Source of the DNA: an uncultured Alphaproteobacteria bacterium
GTDB taxonomy: Bacteria > Pseudomonadota > Alphaproteobacteria > Rs-D84
DNA length: 64,000 nucleotides
Assembly: GCA_944389645.1 (NCBI GenBank)
Contig: CALXMZ010000023.1
Coordinates: 7,445 to 71,444 of the forward strand
Reading direction: 5' to 3'
Part shown: piece after piece, positions 37,580 to 61,517 of the stretch
Position numbering within the stretch: the stretch's first letter is position 1
Layout of the letters: every line of letters starts with the position of its first letter
The notes under the pieces: model-generated
Databases searched by the model: none
Seen by the model: only the letters and a program-made list of their open reading frames with translations
Told to the model about the DNA's origin: nothing
Translations under genes and position numbers: made by a program

Positions 37580-38230
37580 TTACCTTAAAGCTTGTGCGTT
37601 TGCAGATATTATATCTGGTGCATTTTCATCGTTTATTATTTCGTCTAAAAACTTATCGGCTACATCTTTCTGACCAGAGCTTAAATATTTCTGTGCTATT
37701 AATAACCGACTTGTATAGTAAAAAGGAGAAGATTTAGTATTAAGAGACGACAAGTATTTCTCTACTTGTTCTGCTGTCATATCGTCACCCTTAAGGCTTA
37801 TTATATGTAGTTTTGCTAGGTCACGGAAGTCTTTGGTATGACCTTTTTCTGCAAGTTCTTCTAGCTTTTCAATATCGTTATCTAACAAATAAGATTGAAA
37901 TAGAGCTAAATCAGACGTGGCCCCAGAAGTATTTTCTGCTAAAGAAGCTAAAGCCTTAACGTCAAAATTGTCTATTGCTGTTTCATAATTTGTAGCAATT
38001 GCTATTTTGTTACTACGATAAGTACGTACGCCTATTTGAATGGAGGTCGCAATTATAAGTATTAACAAAGCCCCTGCAATTAAATACTTATAATATTTTT
38101 TTATGAAAGCATGAGTTTTTTCGTTATTAACTTCTTCCCATACTTCTCTATAAAGAGCGTCTTCAGCGTATTCTTCGCGCGTTTTTTTCTTAGTTTTGAC
38201 ATTTTTGTTTCTTTCCAAAATTGACGCCAT
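37580..38230 (-). CDS. YfgM-like membrane-anchored TPR-like protein
   Basis: Single TM (YKYLIAGALLILIIATSIQ) with a helical periplasmic domain; synteny upstream of bamB. Confidence 0.6.
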   Translation of the reverse strand: MASILERNKNVKTKKKTREEYAEDALYREVWEEVNNEKTHAFIKKYYKYLIAGALLILIIATSIQIGVRTYRSNKIAIATNYETAIDNFDVKALASLAENTSGATSDLALFQSYLLDNDIEKLEELAEKGHTKDFRDLAKLHIISLKGDDMTAEQVEKYLSSLNTKSSPFYYTSRLLIAQKYLSSGQKDVADKFLDEIINDENAPDIISANAQALR

Positions 38231-42665: not shown

Positions 42666-42816
42666 AAATTTTGTATTTCCTAATTTATAATTTAATAAAA
42701 TTCTGATATAATATATCACAATGGTTGAAAAGTTCAAGATTTTATCAGCTGGTGGTACGTCTAAAGGTTTGAATATATTCAAATCTAGCGCATATAAAGA
42801 ACATCAGCGGAAACCA

Positions 42817-44940
42817 ATGGCGCAGATATTTTGGTCACTGCGTTGGGCTATTGGTATTTGGCTTGTATGTGCGCTGGCTTTTGCGTTGTCTTTCATTATA
42901 GAGCATATTTGGAGATATGGTTGGTCACCAGCAACTACAAAATGGACGCTTCTTTATTTGCACAATATGTTGTCTACAGGTGGATTATCTGTGCTTGCAG
43001 AGATTCCAGATTGGATAACGAGATCTGTTATGCGCACAGATCTAGCTTGTATGATGCCATTGATACCTATAATTGCTTATTATTTTATGGCGGATACAAC
43101 GTTGGTTAAAGAGTTTAATCCTTATGGCAAGGATAAATTTACGGAAAAATCTTCTAATAAGGCAACGAAAGAAGATATAGAAAAGATGGGGTTGTTTAAG
43201 GGTTTTATGATGGTTCTTGGGTATTTTAAAAAGAAACCATTGATGATGAATGAGTGTTTGTCGGCTTTATGCGTTGCTCCTCCGGGGACTGGTAAAACAT
43301 ATGGTGTAGTATTACCGACTATTTTTGACTGTAATACGGTATCAATGATTATAAACGACCCTAAACCAGAATTAAAACAAGTTTCATCTGCGTATCGTTC
43401 AACTGTTGGACCTGTGTTCATTATGAACTGGGCAGGTCAAGACGATCCAGAACGTGGTATATATTATCCGTCTTGGAACCCTTTATCACCAGAACATGTA
43501 CCGTTTGATACGGAACAGAGGGATTTATATATAGATTCTATATGTAATGTATTAGTACCAGACGTAGCGTCTTCTTCTGCTGACCCGCATTGGACTATAT
43601 CCGGTCGTGCTGGTTTATCTGGGTTAATCCAATTTATCGTATCAAAGGTAGAACGGGCTCGTGCAGATGATTATTTTTATTCACGAATAACTTCGGGGAC
43701 GTTTGATGAAGAGGACGCAGCTGTTTTATCAGATTATTATTTATCTATGATGAATGATCCAAATGCATTTGCTGCGCTTGCGTTATTGCAAAAAGGCGAA
43801 TTAAACGCGACTAATTATGTTCATATCGGGACTTGGGAAAAAATACCAGAGGCATGGGTGGGCAAGGAAGCTTCTTTATCCATGATTTTAGATTGGTTAA
43901 ATGCGAGTCAGATTAGTATAGCTCAGGATATGGAAGAACGGCGTCGTCAGGGGGATCAGATGGTTATGATGTCTGATCCGATGAAAGATTTATTTTTTAA
44001 TGCGGTAGAGGAAGCGCGTAATTACGCGTATGCACATAGATCTATCTTAGAATTGACTCAACTTGCGAATACACCTGATAAGGAACGTGGTTCAATTTTA
44101 TCAACTATTATGGCAGGGTTAGGTATATTCCGTAATGCTGCGGTTCGTAATAGAACAAGTCATTCTGACTTTCATTTTGAAGATTTACGTGGGTTAAAAG
44201 ACCCAAGTGACGGTAAAGTAAAACCAGTAACTGTATACTTGTCAATAAATATGGTTGATGCCCAAGCGTTGAATCCGATAACGGGGATATTTATTGAATT
44301 AATGAGTAATTATTTATTAGCAAATAGACCAGAATCTATTAATAATGGTAAGAAATTGGGGCCGTACCCTGTGTTGTTTGTATTAGATGAAATGCCGAAA
44401 ATGCAAAAGTTACAAGCCGTAATTCAGGGACCAGATCTTGGTCGTGGTCAGAAAATATCTTATTTGATTATAGGACAAGATCTACATCAGATTGCTGAAA
44501 AATATGGTAATGATGCGGCTGCGACTATAATATCTACGACTGCCGCGAAGATAGTTCTGCGTCAGAACGATCCTGATACGGCGAAACGTTTTTCTGACAT
44601 GATGGGTTATAAAATGAGCGTGAAGACAGTTAAGGGACCTGACGGTAAAGACAAAGAAGAAACGAAAGAAGAGTTATTATATACGCCAATGGATATAATG
44701 AAATTAGACGATAAAAAACAGCTTGTTATATTTCAGGGGTGGTACCATAGACCTATAGAAGCGGATAAACAAATGGCATTTAATGATCCTCGGCTTTCGG
44801 CTTATATGGCCATGGGTGAGTGCAGTCCATTACCGGAATTTCTGATACCTTCTCATCATGCGGCTTTGGGTTATACGGGTAAACCGAAAATATATATACC
44901 ACAAACGAAAGAATTAAAAGAAATAGAATTTATAAAATAA
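42817..44940 (+). CDS. virD4: type IV secretion coupling protein, VirD4/TraG family
   Basis: Two N-terminal TM helices; APPGTGKTYGVVLPTIFDCNTVSMIINDPKPEL (Walker A region); VLFVLDEMPKM (Walker B); C-terminal AAKIVLRQNDPDTAKRFSDMMG. Confidence 0.75.
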   Translation: MAQIFWSLRWAIGIWLVCALAFALSFIIEHIWRYGWSPATTKWTLLYLHNMLSTGGLSVLAEIPDWITRSVMRTDLACMMPLIPIIAYYFMADTTLVKEFNPYGKDKFTEKSSNKATKEDIEKMGLFKGFMMVLGYFKKKPLMMNECLSALCVAPPGTGKTYGVVLPTIFDCNTVSMIINDPKPELKQVSSAYRSTVGPVFIMNWAGQDDPERGIYYPSWNPLSPEHVPFDTEQRDLYIDSICNVLVPDVASSSADPHWTISGRAGLSGLIQFIVSKVERARADDYFYSRITSGTFDEEDAAVLSDYYLSMMNDPNAFAALALLQKGELNATNYVHIGTWEKIPEAWVGKEASLSMILDWLNASQISIAQDMEERRRQGDQMVMMSDPMKDLFFNAVEEARNYAYAHRSILELTQLANTPDKERGSILSTIMAGLGIFRNAAVRNRTSHSDFHFEDLRGLKDPSDGKVKPVTVYLSINMVDAQALNPITGIFIELMSNYLLANRPESINNGKKLGPYPVLFVLDEMPKMQKLQAVIQGPDLGRGQKISYLIIGQDLHQIAEKYGNDAAATIISTTAAKIVLRQNDPDTAKRFSDMMGYKMSVKTVKGPDGKDKEETKEELLYTPMDIMKLDDKKQLVIFQGWYHRPIEADKQMAFNDPRLSAYMAMGECSPLPEFLIPSHHAALGYTGKPKIYIPQTKELKEIEFIK

Positions 44941-47283: not shown

Positions 47284-47961
47284 TTATCTAGCAGGAGCCA
47301 ATTTAATTTCGACTCTTCTATTAGTTAGTCTTCCTATACTATCTTGGGCTGCGATAGGTCTTGTTGCCCCGCGACCGACGATAAACATTCTTGTCGGGTT
47401 TATGCCGTGCTGCGATAGGTATACACCCACTCGTTGAGCCATGTCTAAAGATAATGCTTTTGCAGCCTGTTGGTTCCCCATAGCATCTGTATAACCTGCG
47501 ATTTCTATAAATGTTGCATCGTATTTATTAAGAACTTTTGATATTATTTTTAATGTATCTGCACCTGTTTCTGATATATCAGCAACGTCTTGCTTCATGA
47601 TTGCATCGCGAATAAGTATTATTACAACTTCTGTCCCAGCTCTTTGAACAGATAGCCCAGGTTTTCGTAAAGAATCATACAATTCATATTCAAGGTCGGA
47701 CATATAATTTATGCTAACTGAATTGTCGTTTGCAATTTTATCGCCATATTCCATATTTTTTGTTTTTGTATTATTTGTTACAAGTTGCCCACCGGCACCT
47801 AAATATACAGGACGTTTTGCAATACGAGAAATCTCGTTCATATCCGTAAAACTTGCCCCATTTAAATAATTACCCCAAGTTGAACGATCAGGACTATGAT
47901 AATAAAAGCAGCCTGTTAATAATAAAAATGTACACAAAAAGATAATTTTATTTTTATACAT
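47284..47961 (-). CDS. OmpA/MotB-family peptidoglycan-binding lipoprotein
   Basis: Lipobox LLTGC; C-terminal IAGYTDAMGNQQAAKALSLDMAQRV...NRRVEI. Its ATG overlaps the pilin stop (TAATG). Confidence 0.75.
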   Translation of the reverse strand: MYKNKIIFLCTFLLLTGCFYYHSPDRSTWGNYLNGASFTDMNEISRIAKRPVYLGAGGQLVTNNTKTKNMEYGDKIANDNSVSINYMSDLEYELYDSLRKPGLSVQRAGTEVVIILIRDAIMKQDVADISETGADTLKIISKVLNKYDATFIEIAGYTDAMGNQQAAKALSLDMAQRVGVYLSQHGINPTRMFIVGRGATRPIAAQDSIGRLTNRRVEIKLAPAR

Positions 47962-48419
47962 TATTCAACTATAAAAGAAATTTTGTTTGTATCTGTTGAA
48001 AAGCAGTTCGTGTTTATATTTGTTTCTATGTCGTTTATTATTACTTTACTTGCCCAAGAATATTTTGCGGTAGCAAAATACTGACATTCTCCTTCTGATA
48101 AACCTGTTAAATTGATAGAGAAAGTAGATGTATCGCTTAACGGTTCTACGCTCCAATCAGAATCCCCAATAGGAGCTTTCTTCGTTTTTAAAGCACCAGC
48201 ATCGATCAAATAATCTAAAGATAAACCTGTATAATCTCCTTTTATTTTCATTAATATTTTCACATCTTTTGCAATTTGTTCTATTTGCATAGAAGCGATT
48301 TTTCTTTCCTGATTATTTTTTATTACGTTATATATACTTATTGCGCTTGCACTCATGACGCCAGCAATTGCTAAGACGCCTATTACTTCCAGTAATGATC
48401 TTCCGTATTCTTGTCTCAT
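47961..48419 (-). CDS. type IV pilin / pseudopilin-like protein (prepilin N-terminal cleavage/methylation domain)
   Basis: MRQEYG|RSLLEVIGVLAIAGVMSASAI: G-1, E+5 and a hydrophobic alpha1 helix. 152 aa with a C-terminal Cys pair (C...C). Confidence 0.7.
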   Translation of the reverse strand: MRQEYGRSLLEVIGVLAIAGVMSASAISIYNVIKNNQERKIASMQIEQIAKDVKILMKIKGDYTGLSLDYLIDAGALKTKKAPIGDSDWSVEPLSDTSTFSINLTGLSEGECQYFATAKYSWASKVIINDIETNINTNCFSTDTNKISFIVE

Positions 48420-49970: not shown

Positions 49971-50047
49971 GCTAAAACTTCCTTTTCAAGAAGCATAGCA
50001 AAACGCATTAAAATTTCAACAATTAAAGTTCAGAATGAAACCTGTTT

Positions 50048-50347
50048 TTATTTTAAATCTGTGATAAAATCAGGGAAAATGTTTTCTTCTTCGTCTGTTA
50101 CATCTGAAGATTCAATAACTTCTTCTTGAATTGCTGTTTTATCTTTCGGGTCACGCGTAGAATCTATTTTTACTTGTTCTGCGTTTACGACCCTACCATA
50201 ATGTTCTGCGGCTTGCATCAATCTTTCACGTTCAATTTCATCCGAAGTTTGACGTGCTTGGTCCATATATTGTTTTCTTTTCTGACGCCACTTATGACAA
50301 CGCTGAATCATTTGCCCGACAGACGATTGATTTTTTTTTGTTTGCAT
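50048..50347 (-). CDS. hypothetical small charged protein
   Basis: 99-aa ORF upstream of dnaX on the same strand. Confidence 0.5.
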   Translation of the reverse strand: MQTKKNQSSVGQMIQRCHKWRQKRKQYMDQARQTSDEIERERLMQAAEHYGRVVNAEQVKIDSTRDPKDKTAIQEEVIESSDVTDEEENIFPDFITDLK

Positions 50348-50442
50348 GGTTTTTCTTTATTATAAGGAAATTTATTAAACAATAACGATTTTCACCATTA
50401 TTACTCTTCAACGACACTAATTTTAAAACATCTTAAAACTGA

Positions 50443-50471
50443 TTGCAATATTTTTTTTCAGTTGCTATTCT
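50443..50471 (+). promoter_or_regulatory. putative sigma70 promoter (TTGCAA-17-TATTCT) for the giant pilin-like operon
   Basis: Hexamers at 50443-50448 and 50466-50471. A GGGAGG RBS lies at 50481-50486 before the ATG at 50493. Confidence 0.35.
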
Positions 50472-50492
50472 TAAATCTATGGGAGGAGTTTT

Positions 50493-51848
50493 ATGCAAAG
50501 GCAGAGTGGGAGTTTTTTATTACAGGCTTTGCTAGCTTTGGCTTTAATTTTTGCTTTTGTCCCGTTTTTCGCTCAGAAACTTGTGTCCAGAGATATTGAT
50601 GCTCAGATGTATTCTTCTACGCAAAAAGTAGAAACGGCTCAGACGGCGGCTAGAATTTTTATACAAGAACATGCTAATGATTTACCGTATAATACGACCG
50701 TTTTTTATGGTGAAGGTTTTTCAGATTTGTTAGAACCGTATGGTTTACCGCTGGGTTTTGTACCTCGTACTGCTTTAGGTCAAGATATTTCTTTGGTTGT
50801 TACGAAAAATGCTAATTCAGTGACGGCATATTTAAGATTAAACGGTGGGGATTTAAATAAAATGCAATTAGCTGAGTTAGTTCGGCGTATAGGTTTTTAT
50901 GCGTCTTTATCTGGTGATGAAATAATAGTCGGTTTGGGGTTAAATGAGGTTTATTCTGACGTTGTAAAAAGGAACGATAAAAATTTAGATGATAATGCTT
51001 TTTTAACGGATTTGAATATGGGCGGTTTTAGTCTTAATAATGCTGGCGATGTTTTTGCGCGTCGTGGTGAAATAGAAACGGGGCAGATTAACACCTTGTC
51101 TTTGTTCGGAGAGGAAAACGGTCGTAAGGTAAAAAATTCTATAGAGTTTTTGATATCAGAAAAAAGCGTTTTTCAGAGTCCTACAGGTGAAGCCGCGTTA
51201 TCATTATCTCGTGGTACGTTGTTAGTTGGTACTGTAAACGCTAAAACCGTATCGAAATTTGGTGATGCTGGAAATTTTACTTCTAATTCTGCATCTGTAT
51301 ATGATTTTGCTATGACTGCGGGTAGAAACAGTTTTTACGGCCCAGCCGATTGGTATGTCGGTGGAAGCGTAATTACTGATAATATTAATTTTAGTTTAGA
51401 AAGGTTGGAAATAAATTCTTATTTAAACGTTTCAAGGGGGCAGGACGTTTACATTGATCCGGATAGTTTAGAATATAGCACAAGAAGTGGTATAGAGGTT
51501 AGCAATATTTATGCATCAAATATAACGATGAGAGATCAGACTTCAGATGCTCTTAATGACGGTGAAACGGGAGCGATAATTTTAGATATTAGACCTGCGG
51601 GTACATCTTTGTTACCAGACGTGCTTTTGGATTCTATTGATAATTCTAGTTTTAAAATAATTAGTAAACCAGAAGCAGATACTTCTGACACAATAGATTG
51701 TCGATCTATAATAAATAAATTAGACGGTAACTACAATCAAAAATCTTTATCTCAGTATATAATATGTCAGTACGTATTTTGGCAAAGATTAGAAAAGCGT
51801 ATAAACATAAAACAGTGTTTAATGGAAGGTAAAAGTGGTTGCTTGTGA
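50493..51848 (+). CDS. giant pilin-like protein 1 (prepilin-type N-terminus with Q at +5; large C-terminal domain)
   Basis: MQRQSG|SFLLQALLALALIFAFVPF. 451 aa. Central LTDLNMGGFSLNNAG motif is shared with the two downstream paralogues. Confidence 0.7.
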   Translation: MQRQSGSFLLQALLALALIFAFVPFFAQKLVSRDIDAQMYSSTQKVETAQTAARIFIQEHANDLPYNTTVFYGEGFSDLLEPYGLPLGFVPRTALGQDISLVVTKNANSVTAYLRLNGGDLNKMQLAELVRRIGFYASLSGDEIIVGLGLNEVYSDVVKRNDKNLDDNAFLTDLNMGGFSLNNAGDVFARRGEIETGQINTLSLFGEENGRKVKNSIEFLISEKSVFQSPTGEAALSLSRGTLLVGTVNAKTVSKFGDAGNFTSNSASVYDFAMTAGRNSFYGPADWYVGGSVITDNINFSLERLEINSYLNVSRGQDVYIDPDSLEYSTRSGIEVSNIYASNITMRDQTSDALNDGETGAIILDIRPAGTSLLPDVLLDSIDNSSFKIISKPEADTSDTIDCRSIINKLDGNYNQKSLSQYIICQYVFWQRLEKRINIKQCLMEGKSGCL

Positions 51849-53031
51849 TATAAGATTTTTATCTAAAGAATCGAATGGTGCTAGCGTGCTAGAAGTATTA
51901 TTAGCTATGGCGATAATAGCTATGGCTACACCATTTGTTTATGACCATGTATCAGAGACGAATATGGCGTTGAAAGATATGGCAGAAGCAAAAAAAATAA
52001 TTGCTTTGCAGGACGACGTATTAAATTTTGTTCGATTGAACCAAGGTAATTGGCCAGAAGTTGCACAGATAAAACTATCTGAAGAAGAGCTTGATAGTAT
52101 ATCTGAAAAACCTTCTGTGTGTTTCGTTGATAAATATGTAATAAATGGAGGAAGCGTCACAGACGTTTATTTATCTTTTGATTTAAAAGATACGCAGTTA
52201 AGGGTATCGCGGATTGCAAAGCATATAGGAGCAGATGCGGCTGTTGTAGGTCTAGATGGTGTTGCGTATGGTGATTCTTGGGCAGTTGCGGCGCCAGAGT
52301 TTAAATATGGTGATTTGATATATAGAATATCCAAAGATATAGACGGTGAAGATAAAACGAAATATTTACATCGTACGGGTATGGGTGATGAGAATTTAAA
52401 CATGATGTTGCGTGATTTAAATATGGGGGGGAATAATATATTTAATGTTGGTGGTGTACAGTCAAAAACTTTAGAAATAAGGAACCTTGCGACACAATTT
52501 ATAGAAGTTGGTAACATAATGTCCGATGCAATATATTTTTCTTCTGGGGCTACTTTATACGGTGATACGGCCAATATAGAAAATTTGCGGGTAACAGGAG
52601 ACGTTTCGGGTTTTCGTAATATTTATGCTGATACATTAAACGGTGAAAAGTATACCACTAGGGGAAGTATAATAACGGATAGAGCCACAATAAATAATTC
52701 AGTTAATATATCGAATAATTTTATTTTAAAATCTGATGAAGCAAGAACGATAAGTGGTTTTACCGGTATAATTGCACATTCTGTAGATACTTCTTCAATT
52801 TCTGCAGAAGAGATCGTTTTTTATGAAGATTTTGGTTTAACGGTATCTGGGGAATTGTTGATGTCTACGACGGCTCCATTAAGAATTGGTAGTTGGACGT
52901 TTCCTTCTCTTACGCCACCTTCTTTTTATTATCTGGAGCTAAGTAGGGCAAAAATTCCAAGTCTTCCACCGGCAAATGAATTTGGTATAATTTTATCAGA
53001 AGGATGGCAGACGGCTGTACCCAAGGAATAA
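51835..53031 (+). CDS. giant pilin-like protein 2 (prepilin-type N-terminus, E at +5)
   Basis: ...SKESNG|ASVLEVLLAMAIIAMATPF; motif LRDLNMGGNNIFNVGG; 398 aa; GTG start overlapping gene 1. Confidence 0.65.
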   Translation: MVACDIRFLSKESNGASVLEVLLAMAIIAMATPFVYDHVSETNMALKDMAEAKKIIALQDDVLNFVRLNQGNWPEVAQIKLSEEELDSISEKPSVCFVDKYVINGGSVTDVYLSFDLKDTQLRVSRIAKHIGADAAVVGLDGVAYGDSWAVAAPEFKYGDLIYRISKDIDGEDKTKYLHRTGMGDENLNMMLRDLNMGGNNIFNVGGVQSKTLEIRNLATQFIEVGNIMSDAIYFSSGATLYGDTANIENLRVTGDVSGFRNIYADTLNGEKYTTRGSIITDRATINNSVNISNNFILKSDEARTISGFTGIIAHSVDTSSISAEEIVFYEDFGLTVSGELLMSTTAPLRIGSWTFPSLTPPSFYYLELSRAKIPSLPPANEFGIILSEGWQTAVPKE

Positions 53032-53033
53032 AT

Positions 53034-54356
53034 ATGAAACTATCAAAGTTTAAAAAATTTTATAAGGTAAAAGAACAATGTGGTAGCATGTTGATTGAGC
53101 TATTAATGAGTGTTGCTTTAGCCGCCGTAATTATGCCCTTTATTTTTAGATATCAAAAAAATGCAATTGTCAGAGCAGAAAATATAACGATTGCTCGTCA
53201 TATGGAGAATATTCAGAGTGCGCTGGAACGCTACATTTTTGAAAATAGAGAGGTTTTATTAAATACTGTAGGAAAAAATATTACAAGAGTAAATATTTCA
53301 GATTTGGTAGATTATGGTATTCCGATAGATTTTATTAATGAGTCAGGTAAAAATTATCAATTAAGAATTCTGAAATCGAATGATATAGATGGTAAGGCCA
53401 CGTTACAGGGGGTAGTGGTTTTTTCTTCCGAGGACGTTTCTCCATTAAGAACGCGTGAAATAGTTGCTTTAGGAGGGGATTCCATGGGGATCATAGAAGG
53501 TAATCGTGCTTATGGTACATTTGGTGCATGGCACGCAGACACGGTAGATCTAGGAGTAAACGTTGCTGGTGGTATAGTAGAAACAACGGCTGTTAATCGT
53601 GATAATGATTTATATTTATGGCGTGTACCATCTGAAAAGGATTCTGATGCGACAATGTTAACTGGTTTAAATCTGGGTGGGCATAACATAAAAGATACTT
53701 ATCTTTTCGGAGCTTCTTCGGTACAAATTGATGAGAATTTGGTTGCTGGTGCAATTGTAGCAAAGGATACGATATTTCAAAATAGAGTTACGATAGATAA
53801 AAATTTTGAAACAACGAATGCTACTGTATCGGGGATTTTATCGGCAGATTCTAGAACGTTAGAGGTTGTAAAAAGTTTTAATTTAGATGATACGGCAAAA
53901 TTTTCAAGTTTTACTACGAATGATTTGTGGGTAAATAATATGACGTTAGGTGGTCTTTCTGTTTATACAGAAGACGGTGGTCCATCTGTATTGAAAGTTA
54001 ATAATTCAATAGATATGACGGATGGAAGAATAGATGCGATGTATGTTACAGTTGGTTTTACAGGTTCTATTACTCCTAGGTTAGTAGTTTCGAATAGAAT
54101 AGAAGATTCTATTAATTCAAATTATTTTTGGGACGCAAGTATGAGGGAAGCTAAATTTTTTGATGTTTCTTTACAAGAATTGAATCGTATGGCAAGTGAA
54201 GTTGTTTATATTGAATCTGGGAAAAACACAGAATCTGGTAAATTATTTGAAGCTGTATCTATCAATAAAAATGCAACGGTTTCAGATTATATAAATGTGA
54301 TACAAGAAATCCAAAATAATGTAACTGTAAAATATAGAAAGTTGAATTTGGAATAA
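53034..54356 (+). CDS. giant pilin-like protein 3 (prepilin-type N-terminus, E at +5)
   Basis: ...KEQCG|SMLIELLMSVALAAVIMPF; motif LTGLNLGGHNIKD; 440 aa; AAGGAA RBS. Confidence 0.7.
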   Translation: MKLSKFKKFYKVKEQCGSMLIELLMSVALAAVIMPFIFRYQKNAIVRAENITIARHMENIQSALERYIFENREVLLNTVGKNITRVNISDLVDYGIPIDFINESGKNYQLRILKSNDIDGKATLQGVVVFSSEDVSPLRTREIVALGGDSMGIIEGNRAYGTFGAWHADTVDLGVNVAGGIVETTAVNRDNDLYLWRVPSEKDSDATMLTGLNLGGHNIKDTYLFGASSVQIDENLVAGAIVAKDTIFQNRVTIDKNFETTNATVSGILSADSRTLEVVKSFNLDDTAKFSSFTTNDLWVNNMTLGGLSVYTEDGGPSVLKVNNSIDMTDGRIDAMYVTVGFTGSITPRLVVSNRIEDSINSNYFWDASMREAKFFDVSLQELNRMASEVVYIESGKNTESGKLFEAVSINKNATVSDYINVIQEIQNNVTVKYRKLNLE

Positions 54357-54375
54357 AATATGCTATGATCGTCAT

Positions 54376-54876
54376 ATGAAAACAGTATGTGACTTTTGTA
54401 AAACAGAATATTCGTTGGAATCTTTTCCGAAAGGTGCGGTTAAATGTGCCGTATGTGGTAACGTTTGGACGGTTGTAAAACCCATAAGGAAGAACGCTTT
54501 TTTGACTTTTATAGCAGCATTGTGTGCGTTACTTGCAGCAATTGTTTTTGCTGTTGTAGCTGTTACGAAGCATCAGATAAATGTAATAGAAAAAGAACCG
54601 TTAGTTGCAGAAATTCAAGAAATAAATACGATAAACGATGAAAATGGGAGGGAGCGTTTCGTTGTAAGTGGAATTGTTCGTAATCGTTCTGAGCATATTT
54701 ATGGGGCTCCGAACCTTATAATAAATACATATGATGAAAATGGTAAAATAATAGACAGACAGAAATTTTTACCTCCTGCAACGTTATTAGATTCTGGGTC
54801 AGTTGTAAACTTTGGGCATATTTTATCTGTGCCGACTCAGAACGTAAAAAAAATTTCGGTTGAGTTAGAAAATTAG
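54376..54876 (+). CDS. MJ0042-type zinc-ribbon / DUF3426-like membrane protein
   Basis: MKTVCDFCKTEY...VKCAVCGNVW (two CxxC) followed by a TM (FLTFIAALCALLAAIVFAVVAV) and a periplasmic domain. Confidence 0.65.
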   Translation: MKTVCDFCKTEYSLESFPKGAVKCAVCGNVWTVVKPIRKNAFLTFIAALCALLAAIVFAVVAVTKHQINVIEKEPLVAEIQEINTINDENGRERFVVSGIVRNRSEHIYGAPNLIINTYDENGKIIDRQKFLPPATLLDSGSVVNFGHILSVPTQNVKKISVELEN

Positions 54877-54885
54877 GGGGAGGTT

Positions 54886-55386
54886 ATGAAAAAGTCGTTA
54901 CTATTTATTTTCTGTGTTCATTTTTGTTTGTTTAGTGCTTTTGCGGCTGAGCATAAACCTAGAATACAGCCGCAGCAACCGCAGCAGCCACAACAGCCGC
55001 GCATAAGTATATTTTCGACAAGTACTGACTGGGAGGGGCTTACAGGTTTGTCGTATCATGAGTATCATGGTAAAATTACTCCATCTACGAATCTTGTAGG
55101 TAATAAGGGTTTGGTATTGTATTACTTAGATGGTTTTCCTTGTTACGGGCTAGGCGAGGGTGTTAGAGTTTGGTTGGGGCCGAATGATAAACATGATGGA
55201 GAGCTTCGTATTGCATGTATTTATCCGCCAAAAGAAATAAAATTCACATGGAGAAACGCAACTCGTGATGCAGACGAAGCTGTTAGTACTGGTTTGTTGG
55301 TATGCTCAGTTGAAGACGATGGCAGAGAATTAAAAATAAATTTATCGGATTGTAAAAAAGGTGAAAACTGGGAAGATTATAAATAG
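54886..55386 (+). CDS. secreted hypothetical protein with a PQQ tripeptide repeat
   Basis: Signal peptide; PQQPQQPQQP; 6 Cys. Confidence 0.55.
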   Translation: MKKSLLFIFCVHFCLFSAFAAEHKPRIQPQQPQQPQQPRISIFSTSTDWEGLTGLSYHEYHGKITPSTNLVGNKGLVLYYLDGFPCYGLGEGVRVWLGPNDKHDGELRIACIYPPKEIKFTWRNATRDADEAVSTGLLVCSVEDDGRELKINLSDCKKGENWEDYK

Positions 55387-55394
55387 GTTTGTGT

Positions 55395-56354
55395 ATGGGG
55401 GATGATTTAACTTTTATTGCTTTACAATCAGATATAGGTATAAGACTGGATAAGTTCTTAGTTGGGAAAATGCCTAGTTTTTCGCGTAATGAAATTCATG
55501 GTTTTGACGTAAGTGTGAATGGGAAGATTTGCAAATTTTCTCAGCGGTTACGCGAAGGTGATGTTGTGTCTGTGCTTGTAAAAAAGCGAGAATCAAATAT
55601 TGCTTCGGATAATGTGTCTTCTACTTTTGATTTAGATATATTGTATGAAGATGATGATATAATTGTTATAAATAAACCTCGTGGGGTTGTAATGTACCCG
55701 TCTGCTGGTAATAAGACTGGAACGTTAGTGCAAAATTTATTGTCGTATACGAAATTATCTTCTTTGGGGGGAGAAATTCGCCCAGGTGTTGTTCACCGTC
55801 TTGACAAAGATACAAGCGGAGTAATGGTTTTTGCAAAAACTGATGAAGCATATAAAGGGTTAGTTAAGATTTTTTCTAATCATAATTTGGTAAGAAAGTA
55901 TATATGTTTCGTATGGGGGGTTCCTAATTGGGAAAGTGCCGATATAACTGGTAATATTGCTAGGTCTTCTAGGAATAGGCAAAAGATGAGTATGGTAAAA
56001 ACAGGTGGTAAACCTGCTCAGACTAAAGTAACTGTATTAGATACTTGGTCTCATGCGGGGGTTTCATTATTTAGATGCAGTCTTTTAACTGGTCGGACTC
56101 ATCAGATAAGAGTACATTTATCCGCGCACGGTTTTCCGATTTTATGTGATCCTGTTTACGGTCGTGGAAATTCTCGTTTAGGTAGCGTAAAAGATATAGA
56201 TTTATTAAATTTTATTAAATCTAATAACGGTCAGATGTTACATGCAGAATTTCTAGAATTTAAACATCCTGTTACGGGTAAAGAGTTATGTTTTAAAAGT
56301 CATATACCTGATGATATGGAGTCATTAAGATCTATATTAAATTCTATCGGGTAA
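55395..56354 (+). CDS. rluD: 23S rRNA pseudouridine synthase, RluA family (RluD/RluC-like)
   Basis: S4 domain, HRLDKDTSGVMVFAKT catalytic motif; ATG at 55395. Confidence 0.8.
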   Translation: MGDDLTFIALQSDIGIRLDKFLVGKMPSFSRNEIHGFDVSVNGKICKFSQRLREGDVVSVLVKKRESNIASDNVSSTFDLDILYEDDDIIVINKPRGVVMYPSAGNKTGTLVQNLLSYTKLSSLGGEIRPGVVHRLDKDTSGVMVFAKTDEAYKGLVKIFSNHNLVRKYICFVWGVPNWESADITGNIARSSRNRQKMSMVKTGGKPAQTKVTVLDTWSHAGVSLFRCSLLTGRTHQIRVHLSAHGFPILCDPVYGRGNSRLGSVKDIDLLNFIKSNNGQMLHAEFLEFKHPVTGKELCFKSHIPDDMESLRSILNSIG

Positions 56355-56424
56355 AATTATTAATATTTTTTCTAAAAATTATGATGATCAGATAGATATT
56401 TCCCTTTATCAAAAAATATTTTTA

Positions 56425-56433
56425 TGTTATAAT
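56425..56433 (+). promoter_or_regulatory. putative extended -10 element (TGtTATAAT)
   Basis: It lies 27 nt upstream of the ATG at 56460; GGAG RBS at 56448-56451. Confidence 0.35.
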
Positions 56434-56459
56434 GACTCAATAAGTATGGAGTGAGTCTA

Positions 56460-59400
56460 ATGAGTCTTCTAAAAAAAACGATTGGATTTTTAGCTGTTTG
56501 TAGTGCATTACCAGAAGCTTTTGCTTTAACTGCACGTCCCAGTGTTATTGGTAATGCATCAATGCGTATGCCGACTATGACGGCATATAATTCAGGAAGT
56601 ACGTCTTCGACAACGACATCAAATTTGTTGGAAAATTCAGAATGTATAGATGCGTATACCAGTTGCTTAAAGGGTAGTGATGTTTGTGGAAATGATTTTG
56701 AGGAATGTACAAACAAAACTTTGTTTTTTTCTAAAAGACCATTGTGCTCAAGTACTTTATTGCAATGCAGTACTTCTGGTATAAATGCGTTGTTCGGAAC
56801 CAGCAACCAAACATTGTTTGCGAATAAAGATTCTGATGATGAGTATGTTTATCCTACAGATGGTAGTGTATTGGGGCAGTTGATAGAAGCAGCTTCAATT
56901 AGCAATCGTTATGATACAAGTACGTGCGTTAAAAGGTATACAAGTTGTTTAACAAAATCTGACGTTTGCGGTTCTGATTTTGAATTATGTACAAGTAATA
57001 CAGAATTTAAGAAACAAAAATTGTTTTGTGAATCTACGTTAGCTCGTTGTCAGTCAGAGGGGATTCAAGAGTTATTTGGTACAACAAGTACTGCATCTAA
57101 CCCCACAAGTAACAGTCGTATAGGTATAATGATTTCAGAAGGTGCTGCACTTGCGGCAGTAAACGCAGTTTCTACTTGTTATAAAGTTATTGATCAATGT
57201 TTCTTAAATGCCTGTGCTACGAACCCGTATAAGTGTAAAGAAGGGAGCTCACAAGAAATTATAAAATATGTAGAAAATGTAAATAATACAGATGGTACTT
57301 TGATAAGTACGGCGACAAATGATCTAGTTCAAACTACAATTAGTCGTAACGAAGTTTCAGGGTTTATAAAAAATTCGTGTTTGGATACGATAGGTTCAAA
57401 TAAATATTGTTATGCCACGTTTTTGGGGAACGGAGTAATGCCTTCGAATGCGCAGTTGCGTGATGCGGATAATCAAGATGAAATTTATTCTGAAGCATAT
57501 TCTTCTAGAATGAACGATTCTATGCGTGCAAAAATAGATGATTTAATAGAACAATTTGACAAAAAAGTTAAAGAGCGTTGTTCTGAAACCATTGTTTCTT
57601 GTGCAATGCGTGCTTGCGGTGAAGGAAGTGGAGCTGCATGTTATGCTTCTGCTTTTAATAGTGCTAATAAAGTAAAAGGTGTTACAAATCCTTCTACTAT
57701 GGAAGGTATAAAATTAGGTTGTGAAGCTTCTGTAAATAATGATACTGCTTGTCAATATGCTGCAGCTACATTTGATACTGCAACTGGGGCTTTAATATTT
57801 GAAGAAAATAGTTTGTTTGATAAATTATTTACTGCTCCGGATGATACAGATGCTAAAAATCCAGATCCTGTTGGTGCGGTTGCAACTTTAAACGCAAGAT
57901 TATCTACTTCTTATAATCAGGCAGCTTTAGATCAGATGAAAAAGCAATGTCAATCAATTGCGACAAGTTGCGTTAAATCTATGTGCGGAACAGATTATCA
58001 AAATTGTTATCGTAATCGTACGGATATATATTCTACATTAACAAACACAGGTAATGATAATTTTGATAAAAGTATGAACAAGGTTGGTGGCGTGTTAGAT
58101 CATACGATTGTTTTAGGATTGTGCTTAAATACTGTTAAAAATAATTCTGTATGTGAAGAACATATAAAAGCTGAAATGGCGAGGAGTTCCGCAAATTCTT
58201 CTTATAATGTTAATTCTTGGGGAAGCGGTATAACAAGTGCCAGAGAAGGTTGGTTGGATGCCGGTAATTATAGCATTACTGCAGAAGTTCAAGATATCGA
58301 TGCTGATGGGAATTTATTATGTACTACTGCAGAAAACGGTGATGGTGTAGAGGGGCGTTGCGATGATGCCAGTGGACAATATATATATCCAAAGATGGTT
58401 TCTCAGACAACGTACGCAGAAAATCTTGCTGAAAGACAAGTTTTTCGTGATTTGATTTCGGATTTGGAAATGGAAGCTCAGGCAAAATATAATGCGAAGT
58501 TAACTAAACAACAGAATATGTGTATGTCTGGTAATGCTGGTGGTATAATCGGCAATAAAGACATGGGCAGTACATATATGTGGGTAAAACTTAAAAATAA
58601 TAAGATACCTTCAAATTATACGGTTAACGGTCTAACTTCTGATAGTTTCGTTGCAAGTAACGATTTGTATGGTTCATTCTGCCGTATACGTATAACAATA
58701 CAATCTGATGATAAAACGATACAGGAAGCTATACGTGCTGGAACGGATTGGGCGACGGCTTATTTTGCAGCAGGTGATTCATTTACTTGTGGAAGCTGGA
58801 TACCTGCAAGCGTATTAAATACTTTAAGTCAATCTGTAGGGGATGCTGCAAGAGCAGATGCTAAAGATTCTCAAGTCAGAGCGTTGCAGTGGATTATGCC
58901 CTTAATAGGTACTGTCGGTGGTACTGTTGGTGGTGCTTACTTAGGAAGCGGTATTCAACAGGGTAAAATTTTATCCGGCTTAACAGGTAAATCTAATAAT
59001 TCTAACAGCTCCAATGTTAACAAAGAAACTTTGAGTAAAAATTGTCAGGATTCATTAACAGAAGCTAAGTCAAATGCCAATAGCGGTGATATAAATACGT
59101 TAAATAGAAATACTCAGCTTGCGGTTGCTTATGCAAAAGAATTGGGGGTTCATCAAGACTATTTGAATGATTTGACAACTGCTTATACAAAAATGAGTTC
59201 TGTTTATAATAATCAGGGTGAAATGAAAGATGATGAATATTCTAAAGCCAAAGAAGATGCAAAAACAGATTATTTAAATAAGTTAGAAGATTTAAATTCT
59301 CAGTGTAAGATATATGCTATATCTGAAGATTCGTCAAATAAGGATGATAAACAACACAAAGTTGCGACAGGTGTAGGTGCGGCTGTTGGTGGTGTCTTGG

Positions 59401-59573
59401 GTGGTGTATTAACTTGGGGAATTACCAATACTATTCAAGAATCAAAATTAGATTCCGCAGAGCGTGCCGCAATAGATGAATGGATGGCCAATGTCGGTAA
59501 TCATATACGTTGCTACATCGGAGCAGATGAAATCGGAGTATATGGTGATACCATAAGTACAAGTATGGAATAA
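56460..59573 (+). CDS. large secreted cysteine-rich protein (about 1037 aa) with an internal 94-aa tandem repeat and two glycine-zipper hydrophobic segments
   Basis: Signal peptide ...CSALPEAFA. Repeats ECIDAYTSCLKGSDVCGNDFEECT... and TCVKRYTSCLTKSDVCGSDFELCT.... GTVGGTVGGAYLG and GVGAAVGGVLGGVL segments. Confidence 0.7.
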   Translation: MSLLKKTIGFLAVCSALPEAFALTARPSVIGNASMRMPTMTAYNSGSTSSTTTSNLLENSECIDAYTSCLKGSDVCGNDFEECTNKTLFFSKRPLCSSTLLQCSTSGINALFGTSNQTLFANKDSDDEYVYPTDGSVLGQLIEAASISNRYDTSTCVKRYTSCLTKSDVCGSDFELCTSNTEFKKQKLFCESTLARCQSEGIQELFGTTSTASNPTSNSRIGIMISEGAALAAVNAVSTCYKVIDQCFLNACATNPYKCKEGSSQEIIKYVENVNNTDGTLISTATNDLVQTTISRNEVSGFIKNSCLDTIGSNKYCYATFLGNGVMPSNAQLRDADNQDEIYSEAYSSRMNDSMRAKIDDLIEQFDKKVKERCSETIVSCAMRACGEGSGAACYASAFNSANKVKGVTNPSTMEGIKLGCEASVNNDTACQYAAATFDTATGALIFEENSLFDKLFTAPDDTDAKNPDPVGAVATLNARLSTSYNQAALDQMKKQCQSIATSCVKSMCGTDYQNCYRNRTDIYSTLTNTGNDNFDKSMNKVGGVLDHTIVLGLCLNTVKNNSVCEEHIKAEMARSSANSSYNVNSWGSGITSAREGWLDAGNYSITAEVQDIDADGNLLCTTAENGDGVEGRCDDASGQYIYPKMVSQTTYAENLAERQVFRDLISDLEMEAQAKYNAKLTKQQNMCMSGNAGGIIGNKDMGSTYMWVKLKNNKIPSNYTVNGLTSDSFVASNDLYGSFCRIRITIQSDDKTIQEAIRAGTDWATAYFAAGDSFTCGSWIPASVLNTLSQSVGDAARADAKDSQVRALQWIMPLIGTVGGTVGGAYLGSGIQQGKILSGLTGKSNNSNSSNVNKETLSKNCQDSLTEAKSNANSGDINTLNRNTQLAVAYAKELGVHQDYLNDLTTAYTKMSSVYNNQGEMKDDEYSKAKEDAKTDYLNKLEDLNSQCKIYAISEDSSNKDDKQHKVATGVGAAVGGVLGGVLTWGITNTIQESKLDSAERAAIDEWMANVGNHIRCYIGADEIGVYGDTISTSME

Positions 59574-59593: not shown

Positions 59594-59619
59594 AAAAACC
59601 GCCTTTAAAGGCGGTTTTT
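59594..59619. terminator. hairpin terminator with A-run/T-run flanks (potentially bidirectional)
   Basis: aaaaaccgcctttaaaggcggttttt. Confidence 0.65.
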
Positions 59620-61405
59620 ATCTATATCCACGTGAATTTAATTTATTCTTTAAGAAATTTATTTTAGCAATAATCGTATTATAGTTTGGGGTTTTATAAA
59701 ATAGATTTTTTGAAATTTCGTCAATTATTTTATATACCTGTTTTGAAGAATAATTGTTTAATATGAAGTATAAATCTTCCCAAGATTGATATAAAATCGT
59801 GTTCAATATTTTCTTTTCTTCGGTTTTTCTGTTATAAGCTTTTTTATTTATCGTGATTGCACCTACGTCTATTATTGTGTTGCCAAAGCGATTACGAATT
59901 TCATTAAAGTCGTACAGACTAAAAAATTTAAACTGCATAAAATAATTTTCTGGTATTTTATCAATTTTACCATATACATATGGTTGTATTATATATCTTT
60001 CACCTCGTTGTGTGCTAATCCCTGCAGTAAAGATTTTATTGAATTTTATTTTCCCCATATATTTTTTCCCAGATAATAAAAAGGAATTTTGAGTTATTGT
60101 ATCATGTGCCCATGTACTTATATATTGATTATCTCTATCAGAATGATAAGTTTTCCACACATACTTTTGACCGTTTATAAATTTTATTACATAATTTTTT
60201 GTAAAGTTTCCAGAAGATAGATATTCTATCTTTGCTTTCTTTCCCGTGATTTTTAATATATCCGCTTCTAATTTTTCTATTGCTTTTTTTACGCAGTCAA
60301 TAGTGTGCAAATTATTTTCTGTTGTATAAGTTTTTATACTGGCTCTGCGAAAAGCTTGGTGTAAATCGGTGGTCGCTTTTTTTATATTAGAGCTAGGCAA
60401 TCCTTTTAACCATTCGTATGGAAAGCAGCCGGGGTTTTGGTAACCTTGAAAAGCCATTTCAGATAGTTCCATAAAGCTTACCGGATGTCTCTTTAGCAGG
60501 TGCGTTGTTTTTTTCTTTACTTCTGTATAAGATTTGTTTCGTGAAAAAATCTTTTTTATTAATTTCTCAATGGAAACACCATGTAATTCAAAAGTATCAA
60601 TGCTTGCATAAGGGTATTTGGATAGCATAAAGTCAAGATTTTTTATAACTACAGGTAATATCTTTGTATAGTTTCGTAATTTTTCTCTGGTTATATTGTT
60701 AATTTTGTTTTCTTCCGATAATGTTGCATTTAAAGAGTTAAATAGGATGTTTTCTATTCTATAAATATGCTTAAATTTCTCGTGTTTTGTTTTATAAAGC
60801 CATAAATGGTGTTTAAATTCATTAATTATAATATCTTTTTTGGCTTTGTTGATAGCTTCTCTTAAAGATAACCCTGTATATGTAAAATCTTTTATTTTTA
60901 TTGCATAATAAGTGCTACCACAGATATCTGTCTTATTAAAGTTTAAACGTTGTAATTCAATTATATTAATTCCGAATAAAGTACGTTTTGATTTTTCATA
61001 AAAACACATGTTTGCATATTTACCTATATTAAAAGTTTTTTGTCCGTTTTCTGTGTTTTTTATGATTGTCTTTAAATTGTTCGTTGCGAAAGGAGACCAC
61101 AATAAAATACTGCACCAATTACTTGGTATTTGTATTTTTTTTACATTAAAACAATTTGAGAAGGCATCGGAATTTACGTTTTTTATAGTTTCTCCGAAGA
61201 ATATTTCTTCTAGATTATGATTGTTGCAAAATACTTTATTTGATATTTCTGTTAAAGAATCTGGGAAAAAAATTTTTTTTAAGTTTTGTAAACCTTCGCC
61301 TACATTAGGAGAAATGCTTTTTACCGTATTTGGAATATAAAGTTCACCATCTTTCGTGAGATCTGAATCATTTATTGATATAAGAACGCCATTTTCTATT
61401 ATCAT
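59618..61405 (-). CDS. hypothetical protein with N-terminal BspA-type leucine-rich repeats; very low GC
   Basis: YIPNTVKSISPNVGEGLQNLKKIFFPDSLTEISNKVFCNNHNLEEIFFGETIKNVNSDAFSNCFNVKKIQIP. 595 aa, no signal peptide, K/N/I-rich. Confidence 0.6.
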   Translation of the reverse strand: MIIENGVLISINDSDLTKDGELYIPNTVKSISPNVGEGLQNLKKIFFPDSLTEISNKVFCNNHNLEEIFFGETIKNVNSDAFSNCFNVKKIQIPSNWCSILLWSPFATNNLKTIIKNTENGQKTFNIGKYANMCFYEKSKRTLFGINIIELQRLNFNKTDICGSTYYAIKIKDFTYTGLSLREAINKAKKDIIINEFKHHLWLYKTKHEKFKHIYRIENILFNSLNATLSEENKINNITREKLRNYTKILPVVIKNLDFMLSKYPYASIDTFELHGVSIEKLIKKIFSRNKSYTEVKKKTTHLLKRHPVSFMELSEMAFQGYQNPGCFPYEWLKGLPSSNIKKATTDLHQAFRRASIKTYTTENNLHTIDCVKKAIEKLEADILKITGKKAKIEYLSSGNFTKNYVIKFINGQKYVWKTYHSDRDNQYISTWAHDTITQNSFLLSGKKYMGKIKFNKIFTAGISTQRGERYIIQPYVYGKIDKIPENYFMQFKFFSLYDFNEIRNRFGNTIIDVGAITINKKAYNRKTEEKKILNTILYQSWEDLYFILNNYSSKQVYKIIDEISKNLFYKTPNYNTIIAKINFLKNKLNSRGYR

Positions 61406-61517
61406 GAATAGGAATTTTAGACATGTTTTTTATTTTGTCAATTATTTTTTTGTGCTTTTTTAATTTTTAACTTTTGTATATATTTTTTTTGTGTTAGAAT
61501 TAATTTTAAGAGAGAAT

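Follow-up and report, generated by a model that had tools for sequence, protein, structure and literature searches.

The PilV protein of IncI plasmids (R64/TP114-type) is a minor pilin and the target-cell adhesin of type IVb thin pili. Its family, PF04917 Shufflon_N, is described as ‘shufflon system conjugative transfer pilus tip adhesin’, and related PilV proteins belong to the PAPI-1 and Salmonella Typhi type IVb pili. Other large type IVb minor pilins, TcpB of Vibrio cholerae and CofB of ETEC CFA/III, form a tip complex and start assembly; each is encoded by a single gene within a complete pilus operon and forms homotrimers. Among the minor pseudopilins of type II secretion systems, GspK lacks Glu5.

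Here, we describe three adjacent genes (P1, P2 and P3) in a 64-kb window, i.e. the whole stretch of alphaproteobacterial DNA that was analysed. Each product appears to join a Gly-ending prepilin leader and a type IVb pilin domain to a beta-rich C-terminal module of its own. The explanation that we prefer, and consider probable, is that the three are ancient PilV paralogues acting as adhesin-pilins of a type IVb pilus with a PilS-like fibre; the filament-associated role suggested in the original prediction is thereby kept and made more specific. The organism is Candidatus Enterousia (order Rs-D84), from a gut lineage that is widespread, has genomes of <1 Mb and is predicted to be partner-dependent (PMC12306168); the ‘intracellular bacterium’ of the original prediction is unproven.

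P1, a candidate type-1 PilV-like minor pilin/adhesin (50493..51848, + strand; 451 aa), has the leader MQRQSG and Gln at +5. Its pilin domain covers approximately residues 5-150 and is followed by LNMGG at residues 171-185 (nt 51003-51047), a beta-rich middle part and a Cys-rich C-terminal domain (Cys 403, 425, 442 and 450). P2, of type 2 (51835..53031, + strand; 398 aa), has a 15-aa leader, Glu at +5 and the LNMGG block at residues 192-207 (nt 52408-52455); its reading frame overlaps that of P1 by 14 nt. P3, of type 3 (53034..54356, + strand; 440 aa), has a 17-aa leader, Glu at +5 and an LNLGG version of the block at residues 209-221 (nt 53658-53696). An alternative start at 53004 would lengthen P3 to 450 aa; the start is most likely 53034, because P3 orthologues measure 436-441 aa and an AAGGA ribosome-binding site precedes that position. 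In all three proteins, the pilin domain ends in a conserved (D/L)(L/M)N(M/L)GG-N-I-N block. The GC content of the pilin genes equals the window average, and a scan for promoters and terminators gave signals no better than those of shuffled sequence. Envelope-biogenesis genes (skp, lpxD, fabZ and lpxA/B) surround the pilin genes.

The prepilin junctions read from the open reading frames (ORFs) are MQRQSG/SFLLQ in P1, ...SNG/ASVLE in P2 and ...QCG/SMLIE in P3. A strict prepilin pattern (leader, G, xxxx, E/Q and then 19 uncharged hydrophobic-rich residues), applied in six frames to all ORFs of ≥60 aa in the window, matched only four: P1, P2, P3 and the ORF at 47961-48419 on the minus strand. G(-1) and E/Q(+5) are retained in nearly all of 360 orthologues and 148 distant representatives, and across >1000 clusters the helix Pro is kept as well as Gly(-1) and Glu/Gln(+5). 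Judged by this pattern, the prepilin-like N-termini recognized in the original prediction are not due to chance. All elements of a class III signal are present, namely a short basic leader, Gly at -1, Glu/Gln at +5 and approximately 20 hydrophobic residues, and the N-terminal helix can be aligned with that of a Geobacter pilin so that Gly and Glu5 coincide; the type-1 family is fixed on Gln5 and has no Glu5. Membership of the TadE/TadF/TadG group was rejected, with no TadE-family match at E ≤ 1 in Pfam or NCBIfam.

AlphaFold models of the N-domains are confident and show in each case the pilin arrangement of a long N-terminal helix (approximately 55 residues) packed on an antiparallel beta-sheet, with type IVb pilins as structural neighbours. 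Foldseek, which the original prediction had proposed as a check, found no significant match for the P1 model in the PDB, and a sequence search of the PDB with the PilV profile found no solved relative. The C-terminal parts were modelled with low-to-moderate confidence, and the label ‘beta-helix adhesin’ is therefore tentative for them. The four cysteines of the P1 C-domain are conserved, which fits an extracytoplasmic location.

The LNMGG domain, left as an unnamed family in the original prediction, is, by profile comparison, a diverged PilV/Shufflon_N constant region. In hhalign, the N-domain profile of the window family scored 99.1% against four annotated plasmid PilV proteins (E 1.3e-18, 208 columns), with LNMGG aligned to the PilV motif AIDMNxNNLNN. 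Taken alone, the paralogue families scored 96.5-98.5% against PilV, that of P3 reaching 98.5% (E 1.8e-15), and the globular part, stripped of signal and hydrophobic helix, still scored 97.2% (E 4.5e-11). Pfam Shufflon_N matched 7/102 distant family members (best 2.8e-11); one of the distant members, P0470, reached 29.5 bits against a cut-off of 27.5 and matches pilV as annotated in 1151 plasmids (E values down to 2e-12). The window proteins themselves are not linked to PilV by Pfam or NCBIfam models or by tblastn, and profiles were therefore needed to make the link: PF04917 matched none of the three at E ≤ 1 and its gathering score was not reached, direct Pfam and NCBIfam scans gave only weak matches to the N-terminal helix, and tblastn of P1 against plasmids recovered no pilV. 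Pfam also found nothing in ten long distant homologues. Divergence from PilV would account for the blank annotation of P1, P2 and P3 in current domain libraries, and the PilV/Shufflon_N family is enlarged by >1000 unannotated clusters (50% identity) that fall outside plasmids.

The paralogy of P1, P2 and P3 claimed in the original prediction applies to their N-terminal 190-230 residues and ends at the LNMGG block; there, BLASTP gave E values of 3e-7 to 3e-3 and hhalign comparisons between orthologue families gave 97.3-98.5%. It does not extend to the C-terminal halves, the sequences of which are unrelated. Within the genus, these C-domains are conserved almost as well as the N-domains, in contrast to the hypervariable tails of shufflons, a point that counts against a PilV-type reading. 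A shufflon at this locus is ruled out, since both repeats and recombinase are missing: there are no multi-copy inverted (sfx-like) repeats in 50000-56500 and none of the window ORFs encodes Rci or another recombinase. Across 80 genomes, the genes keep fixed lengths.

The fourth ORF found by the prepilin pattern, which the original prediction overlooked, lies 2 kb upstream of P1 and encodes a candidate PilS-like type IVb major pilin (47961..48419, - strand; 152 aa) with the junction MRQEYG/RSLLEV and a Cys pair (Cys 112 and 139) that is conserved among its orthologues. Profile evidence supports this assignment, though at threshold level: the window protein falls just short of the Pfam PilS cut-off (E 6e-4; 20.3 bits, cut-off 22), the PilS model matches 4/6 orthologues (best 2.6e-5), and hhalign against the IncI2 major pilin PilS gives 90.3% (E 1.5e-6, 145 columns). 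The gene is found in nearly all of 80 related loci. Overlapping its stop by 1 nt is the gene for an OmpA-family (YiaD-like) peptidoglycan-binding lipoprotein (47284..47961, - strand; Pfam OmpA 2.4e-15, NCBIfam YiaD-like 6e-30), and the dnaX/pilS-like/ompA block is intact even where it is inverted (loci L070 and L086); judging from this linkage, the lipoprotein is a possible accessory protein. With a PilS-like major pilin gene 2 kb from P1, the locus probably encodes the organism’s cell-attachment pilus.

Downstream of P3, the genes listed in the original prediction are all present as described, closely spaced on the same strand. After 19 nt comes a gene for an MJ0042-type zinc-ribbon protein with a single transmembrane segment and an FxLYD domain (54376..54876, +; Pfam Zn_ribbon_4 2.8e-4 and DUF3426 5.6e-4, NCBIfam FxLYD 2.5e-5); after 9 nt, one whose product is small and secreted, carrying a Sec signal and the repeat QPQQPQQPQQP (54886..55386, +); and after a further 2 nt, the final gene of the tight cluster, encoding a housekeeping rluD-type pseudouridine synthase (55389..56354, +), assigned from its sequence and from PseudoU_synth_2 on the orthologous gene. 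The zinc-ribbon gene adjoins the pilin genes here, as predicted, and appears to be co-transcribed with them, yet its conserved partner appears to be rluD: in a distant relative (L095), its homologue (BLASTP E 7e-15) adjoins rluD on the other strand, and in L090 the gene is missing beside the pilin triple. The PQQ-repeat protein matched no Pfam or NCBIfam family and has no similarity to the gene at the equivalent rluD-adjacent position in L095, and nothing observed ties it to the pilin module. No paralogy was detectable between the two large Cys-rich proteins encoded downstream.

The four-gene set of the PilS-like pilin and P1, P2 and P3 is kept, with fixed synteny, in nearly all of 80 Enterousia species-level loci. 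Native GC content and this fixed synteny in 80 species-level genomes rule out a recent acquisition from a plasmid or ICE; the locus is therefore not a recent mobile element. Of the genes expected in a pil operon (secretin, PilO/PilP, ATPase, platform, major pilin, transglycosylase and A24 peptidase), only the PilS-like pilin gene is nearby. The original statement that pilus ATPase, platform protein, prepilin peptidase and secretin are all lacking from the window stands as far as tested (all ORF translations were read, with Pfam on ambiguous ORFs and a motif scan). Neither an ATPase nor an A24 motif was found in the window plus 88 related loci (1.7 Mb, mostly of the same region), and no machinery genes stand beside the pilin triple in four other alphaproteobacterial contexts or in the contexts of five distant homologues; of the organism’s own genome, ~7% was covered.

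This absence from all sequence searched is what a reading of the proteins as orphans would build on. In that case, the type IV filament machine was lost or never present, and P1, P2, P3 and the small pilin, which would stay in the inner membrane through their N-terminal helices or be dealt with by another machine, would have a periplasm-spanning or envelope role, as might also be suggested by their position amid envelope-biogenesis genes. In a genomic survey of Rs-D84 (PMC12306168), type IV pilus genes are mentioned solely for another reduced lineage; this weakly suggests that standard annotation recovers none in Enterousia. We consider this orphan reading unlikely. If the N-termini were neither processed by a peptidase nor packed as helices, it would be difficult to see why the helix Pro, Gly(-1) and Glu/Gln(+5) persist in >1000 clusters. 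Moreover, a PilS-like structural pilin that has the classic disulphide pair is conserved together with the three proteins, and the machinery is missing from a sample of ~7% of the genome. If canonical assembly genes are absent, the pilins might instead be processed and displayed non-canonically, for example by coupling to a type IV secretion system (T4SS) of the VirD4-type coupling protein encoded in the window (Pfam; 42721-44940), or might form a hetero-trimeric contact organelle, assembled by some other route, that tethers a parasite-like bacterium to its partner; to this we attach a rather low probability.

The same coupling-protein gene raises the prospect that a PilS/PilV pilus brings in targets for DNA or effector transfer rather than for general adhesion, as the device with which a chromosomally fixed conjugative system or T4SS selects mating pairs or target cells; IncI plasmids use PilV to choose recipients for the T4SS (PMC9045228). 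We think this quite unlikely, given that the coupling-protein gene is solitary amid housekeeping genes and its product has 23% identity to the IncI2 one, a generic similarity, that the surroundings of the pilin genes hold no relaxase, integrase or other transfer genes, and that GC content and chromosomal synteny are native and fixed, as above. Most improbable, in our assessment, is the tip of a type II secretion pseudopilus, in which GspK/GspI/GspJ-like minor pseudopilins would cap a short, periplasmic, protein-expelling filament. Three different minor subunits accompanied by one small pilin, the missing Glu5 of type 1 (as in GspK), a weak GspI match and one distant homologue labelled ‘PulG’ by IMG all recall such a system, and the original prediction drew the analogy with GspK versus GspI/J. 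No homology underlies it: the sole match, to TIGR01707 GspI (E 0.018; 15.5 bits against a cut-off of 44.35), is confined to the N-terminal helix (P2 residues 15-70), the globular domains are homologous to those of PilV with type IVb pilins as structural neighbours, there are no gsp genes, and large adhesin-like C-terminal modules would not suit a periplasmic piston.

Under the preferred explanation of PilV-type adhesin-pilins, prepilin peptidase would cut off the leaders of P1, P2 and P3, and the hydrophobic helices would then insert the three proteins into a fibre made of the PilS-like pilin. Their most likely place would be the tip or its vicinity, with type 1, which has no Glu5, outermost, and their three distinct C-terminal modules may bind surface structures of a partner or host cell that the reduced-genome bacterium needs. 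What the analysis shows is homology, a pilin fold, conservation and linkage to a PilS-like pilin; we infer the processing, the assembly into a pilus, the tip position, the adhesin function and the target. The conserved set of PilS-like and three PilV-like proteins is a concrete, testable candidate for the apparatus with which Enterousia contacts its partner.

Among described systems, beta-helix adhesins such as tapirins, autotransporter passengers and bactofilin-like solenoids have no sequence similarity to P1, P2 or P3; the structural matches to them lie in low-confidence model regions, and tapirins are not pilins. TcpB and CofB likewise have no detectable sequence homology to the three proteins, and they differ in being single-gene products, whereas three different genes are present here and a hetero-oligomer is possible in principle. 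GspK-GspI-GspJ offer a parallel of three distinct minor subunits, one without Glu5, beside one small major subunit, but their globular domains are not homologous, the C-terminal modules described here are far larger and a gsp context is absent. With the PilV proteins of IncI1 and IncI2 plasmids (R64, TP114; PF04917), the likeness is more extensive. It comprises a prepilin leader in which Gly stands at -1, followed by Glu or Gln at +5, a homologous N-terminal region of ~200 aa that includes the ...YL-R...LN-M...(D/L)MN-GN-I-N block, a divergent C-terminal part, which in PilV is the receptor-binding end, and a candidate PilS-like major pilin as partner. It also extends to size (458 aa in IncI2 PilV versus 398-451 aa here), so that the 400-450 aa called ‘giant’ in the original prediction are ordinary for PilV and for other type IVb minor pilins. 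The differences are that P1, P2 and P3 have diverged beyond detection by PF04917 or tblastn; that type 1 is fixed on Gln5 (Gln at +5 is also present in a genuine plasmid PilV, from Pantoea); that the genes are chromosomal, amid housekeeping genes and not beside pilN/O/P/Q/R/T/U; and that the host is a reduced-genome alphaproteobacterium instead of an enterobacterial plasmid. Finally, where PilV is one gene with invertible 3' cassettes, three fixed paralogous genes are found here, and the lineage may thus hard-wire three adhesin paralogues, an alternative to the shufflon that dispenses with DNA inversion of a single PilV tail.

P1 (50493–51848, +; 451 aa), P2 (51835–53031, +; 398 aa), and P3 (53034–54356, +; 440 aa) are followed by genes encoding a zinc-ribbon/FxLYD membrane protein (54376–54876, +), a PQQ-repeat protein with a Sec signal (54886–55386, +), and rluD (55389–56354, +). 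Neighbouring genes of this cluster overlap or lie 2–19 nt apart, and at 0.356 the operon’s GC content matches the window average (0.3555). The ORFs are as given in the original prediction, apart from the start of P3: the longest ORF and the public gene calls begin at 53004 (450 aa), but, judging from the sequence, the true start is most likely the ATG at 53034, because the orthologues measure 436–441 aa and an AAGGA ribosome-binding site lies upstream of this codon. Divergent from the P1 promoter region lies a gene for a small DUF4167-like protein (50048–50347, −; weak match, E 3e-4), a position kept in distant Rs-D84 loci (L086).

P1, P2, and P3 each begin with a short basic leader ending in glycine, followed by four residues, a glutamate (P2 and P3) or glutamine (P1), and some 20 hydrophobic residues that include a conserved Pro-Phe. 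A strict prepilin pattern, run on all ORFs of at least 60 aa in six frames across the whole window, matched only these three and an ORF at 47961–48419 (−), and Gly(−1) and Glu/Gln(+5) are retained in nearly all of 360 orthologues and also in 148 distant representatives; the predicted prepilin-like N-termini are thus not due to chance. When searched against the PDB, the shared-domain profile aligned to the N-terminal helix of a Geobacter pilin with Gly and Glu5 in register (E 0.008).

The three proteins had also been described as paralogues, which holds for their N-terminal regions and fails for their C-terminal halves. Pairwise BLASTP likeness is weak (20–24% identity, E 3e-7 to 3e-3), and profile–profile comparison between the orthologue families gives a clear signal (P1 versus P2, 98.5%, E 1.6e-15; P2 versus P3, 97.3%, E 1.9e-11). 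The likeness is limited to the first ~190–250 residues and stops just past the LNMGG block, the conserved motif common to all three; the C-terminal halves have no sequence relationship. AlphaFold models the N-terminal domains confidently (pLDDT 83–91 for P1 residues 5–150 and ~80–88 for P2 residues 18–168), in each case as a ~55-residue helix followed by a sheet. Structural neighbours of P2 include tapirin (7.7), bactofilin, adhesins, and TcpA (5.6); because the poorly modelled C-terminal part dominates this list, the C-terminal modules can be read as beta-helices only tentatively. At its C-terminus P1 has a small, well-modelled domain carrying four invariant cysteines, and a Foldseek search of the P1 model against the PDB gave no significant match.

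The LNMGG-containing domain, which the original prediction did not recognise as a named family, is a diverged PilV/Shufflon_N constant region. Pfam and NCBIfam scans of P1, P2, and P3 themselves returned nothing; of 102 distant members scanned, seven matched PF04917 (Shufflon_N; best E 2.8e-11) and nine matched N_methyl weakly, and the first gene of the triple in L090, a related locus, gave a weak Shufflon_N match. One distant member (P0470) scores above the Pfam cut-off for PF04917 and matches, in 1151 plasmids, genes that carry the annotation ‘shufflon system plasmid conjugative transfer pilus tip adhesin PilV’ (E down to 2e-12). Against a reference profile of four PilV proteins from annotated plasmids, the N-domain family of the window scored 99.1% (E 1.3e-18, 208 columns), with 98.5%, 96.5%, and 98.5% for the single families of P1, P2, and P3; after both sides were trimmed of leader and hydrophobic helix, the match still reached 97.2% (E 4.5e-11, 172 columns). 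The LNMGG block aligned to the invariant PilV motif LNRMHTAIDMNxNNLNN. Nor are the proteins ‘giant’: PilV of an IncI2 plasmid has 458 aa, and 400–450 aa is therefore normal for the family. The Gln(+5) of P1 is likewise seen in Pantoea PilV.

The fourth ORF with a prepilin pattern (47961–48419, −; 152 aa, MRQEYG|RSLLEV, two invariant cysteines) is a candidate PilS-like partner pilin that the original prediction overlooked. Four of six orthologues matched Pfam PilS (best 2.6e-5), and the family aligned over its full length to the major pilin of IncI2 (90.3%, E 1.5e-6). The gene lies between dnaX and a gene for an OmpA-family lipoprotein, with overlapping stop and start codons, and this block is intact even where it is inverted (L070).

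The best-supported reading is that the locus is a chromosomal, dispersed derivative of an IncI-type type IVb pilus, built from a PilS-like fibre subunit together with three PilV-like adhesin-pilins encoded as fixed genes. That these are instead orphan or non-canonical pilins is unlikely, and is kept alive because no pilus machinery was found in the sequence examined. As predicted, no ATPase, platform protein, A24 peptidase, or secretin was found in the window (all translations read, with Pfam on ambiguous ORFs); a motif scan for machinery across the window and 88 loci was negative, as was every other context of the triple examined. Shufflon repeats and recombinase were not found at the locus, and a survey of Rs-D84 mentions type IV pili for another lineage only (PMC12306168). 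The window’s only secretion-related gene, for a VirD4/TraG-type coupling protein (42721–44940, +; Pfam T4SS-DNA_transf, 2.9e-48), lies between rsmE and fabZ with no other transfer genes nearby, and the protein’s likeness to its IncI2 counterpart is generic only.

The zinc-ribbon and PQ proteins, previously placed with the pilins, cannot be shown to belong to the pilin module, since the zinc-ribbon homologue in L095 lies beside rluD on the strand opposite to the triple (E 7e-15) and the gene was not found beside the triple in L090. Beyond rluD, two large secreted Cys-rich proteins (56451–59573, +, 1040 aa; 61491–63494, +, 667 aa), which match no family and have no detectable relationship to each other, may be surface proteins; the former keeps its post-rluD position in distant Rs-D84 (1239 aa in L086). 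Between them, a 595-aa protein (59618–61405, −) with N-terminal BspA-type leucine-rich repeats (LRR_5, 1.1e-13) is a candidate for a further cell-contact protein.

Close homologues number ~900 clusters (90% identity) per P protein, none functionally named; the sole named cluster is labelled ‘hypothetical protein’. Scanning one genome per species yielded 204 relatives, the best 80 of which are animal and human gut MAGs labelled Candidatus Enterousia, uncultured Alphaproteobacteria, or ‘Rickettsiales’ (one of them circular, at 958,618 bp) and carry a near-invariant set of a ~152-aa minus-strand pilin plus proteins of 451, ~400, and ~437 aa. One Enterousia-type four-pilin locus lies on a 102-kb contig deposited as Bacteroides fragilis (CAVGNU010000002.1), probably a binning or labelling error. 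A 216-aa protein of the window (37580–38230, −) scores 27.2 bits for DUF2659 (Pfam cut-off 27.7), a family known chiefly from Rickettsia-type genomes, and may hint at lineage affinities.

More widely, the shared-domain profile recovered 1066 clusters (50% identity; E ≤ 1e-3) of 400–1049 aa among 1.84 billion proteins. The top 148 representatives fall into subtypes of 33, 54, and 61, type 1 mostly with Gln5 and types 2 and 3 with Glu5. More distant Alphaproteobacteria have the three-gene operon too: L086/L087 (531, 455, and 653 aa, in the same synteny), L090 (487, 423, and 544 aa), and L095 (498, 476, and 426 aa; downstream of lpxA–lpxB). Flagellated relatives have a single ~1000-aa homologue adjoining fliL, preceded by a conserved ~220-aa protein (L085, 715–1404; L088, 9321–9983; L089, 9317–9988) that has no leader and opens with a hydrophobic segment starting MY[LIV]WVVL[TA]TF.

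Enterousia, of the order Rs-D84, has genomes mostly below 1 Mb, lacks most biosynthesis, and is predicted to rely on a partner organism (PMC12306168). On IncI plasmids, the PilV variant determines which cells the donor attaches to (PMC9045228; PMC5297154); by analogy, the partner cell might be what the three C-terminal modules of this reduced-genome bacterium bind, and a hetero-oligomeric tip that places the Gln5 subunit outermost would be an attractive arrangement. The finding stands and is now more sharply defined: what is new is not an unknown kind of protein but a form of the known PilV family that, compared with plasmid PilV, is chromosomal, exists as three paralogues, and does without a shufflon.
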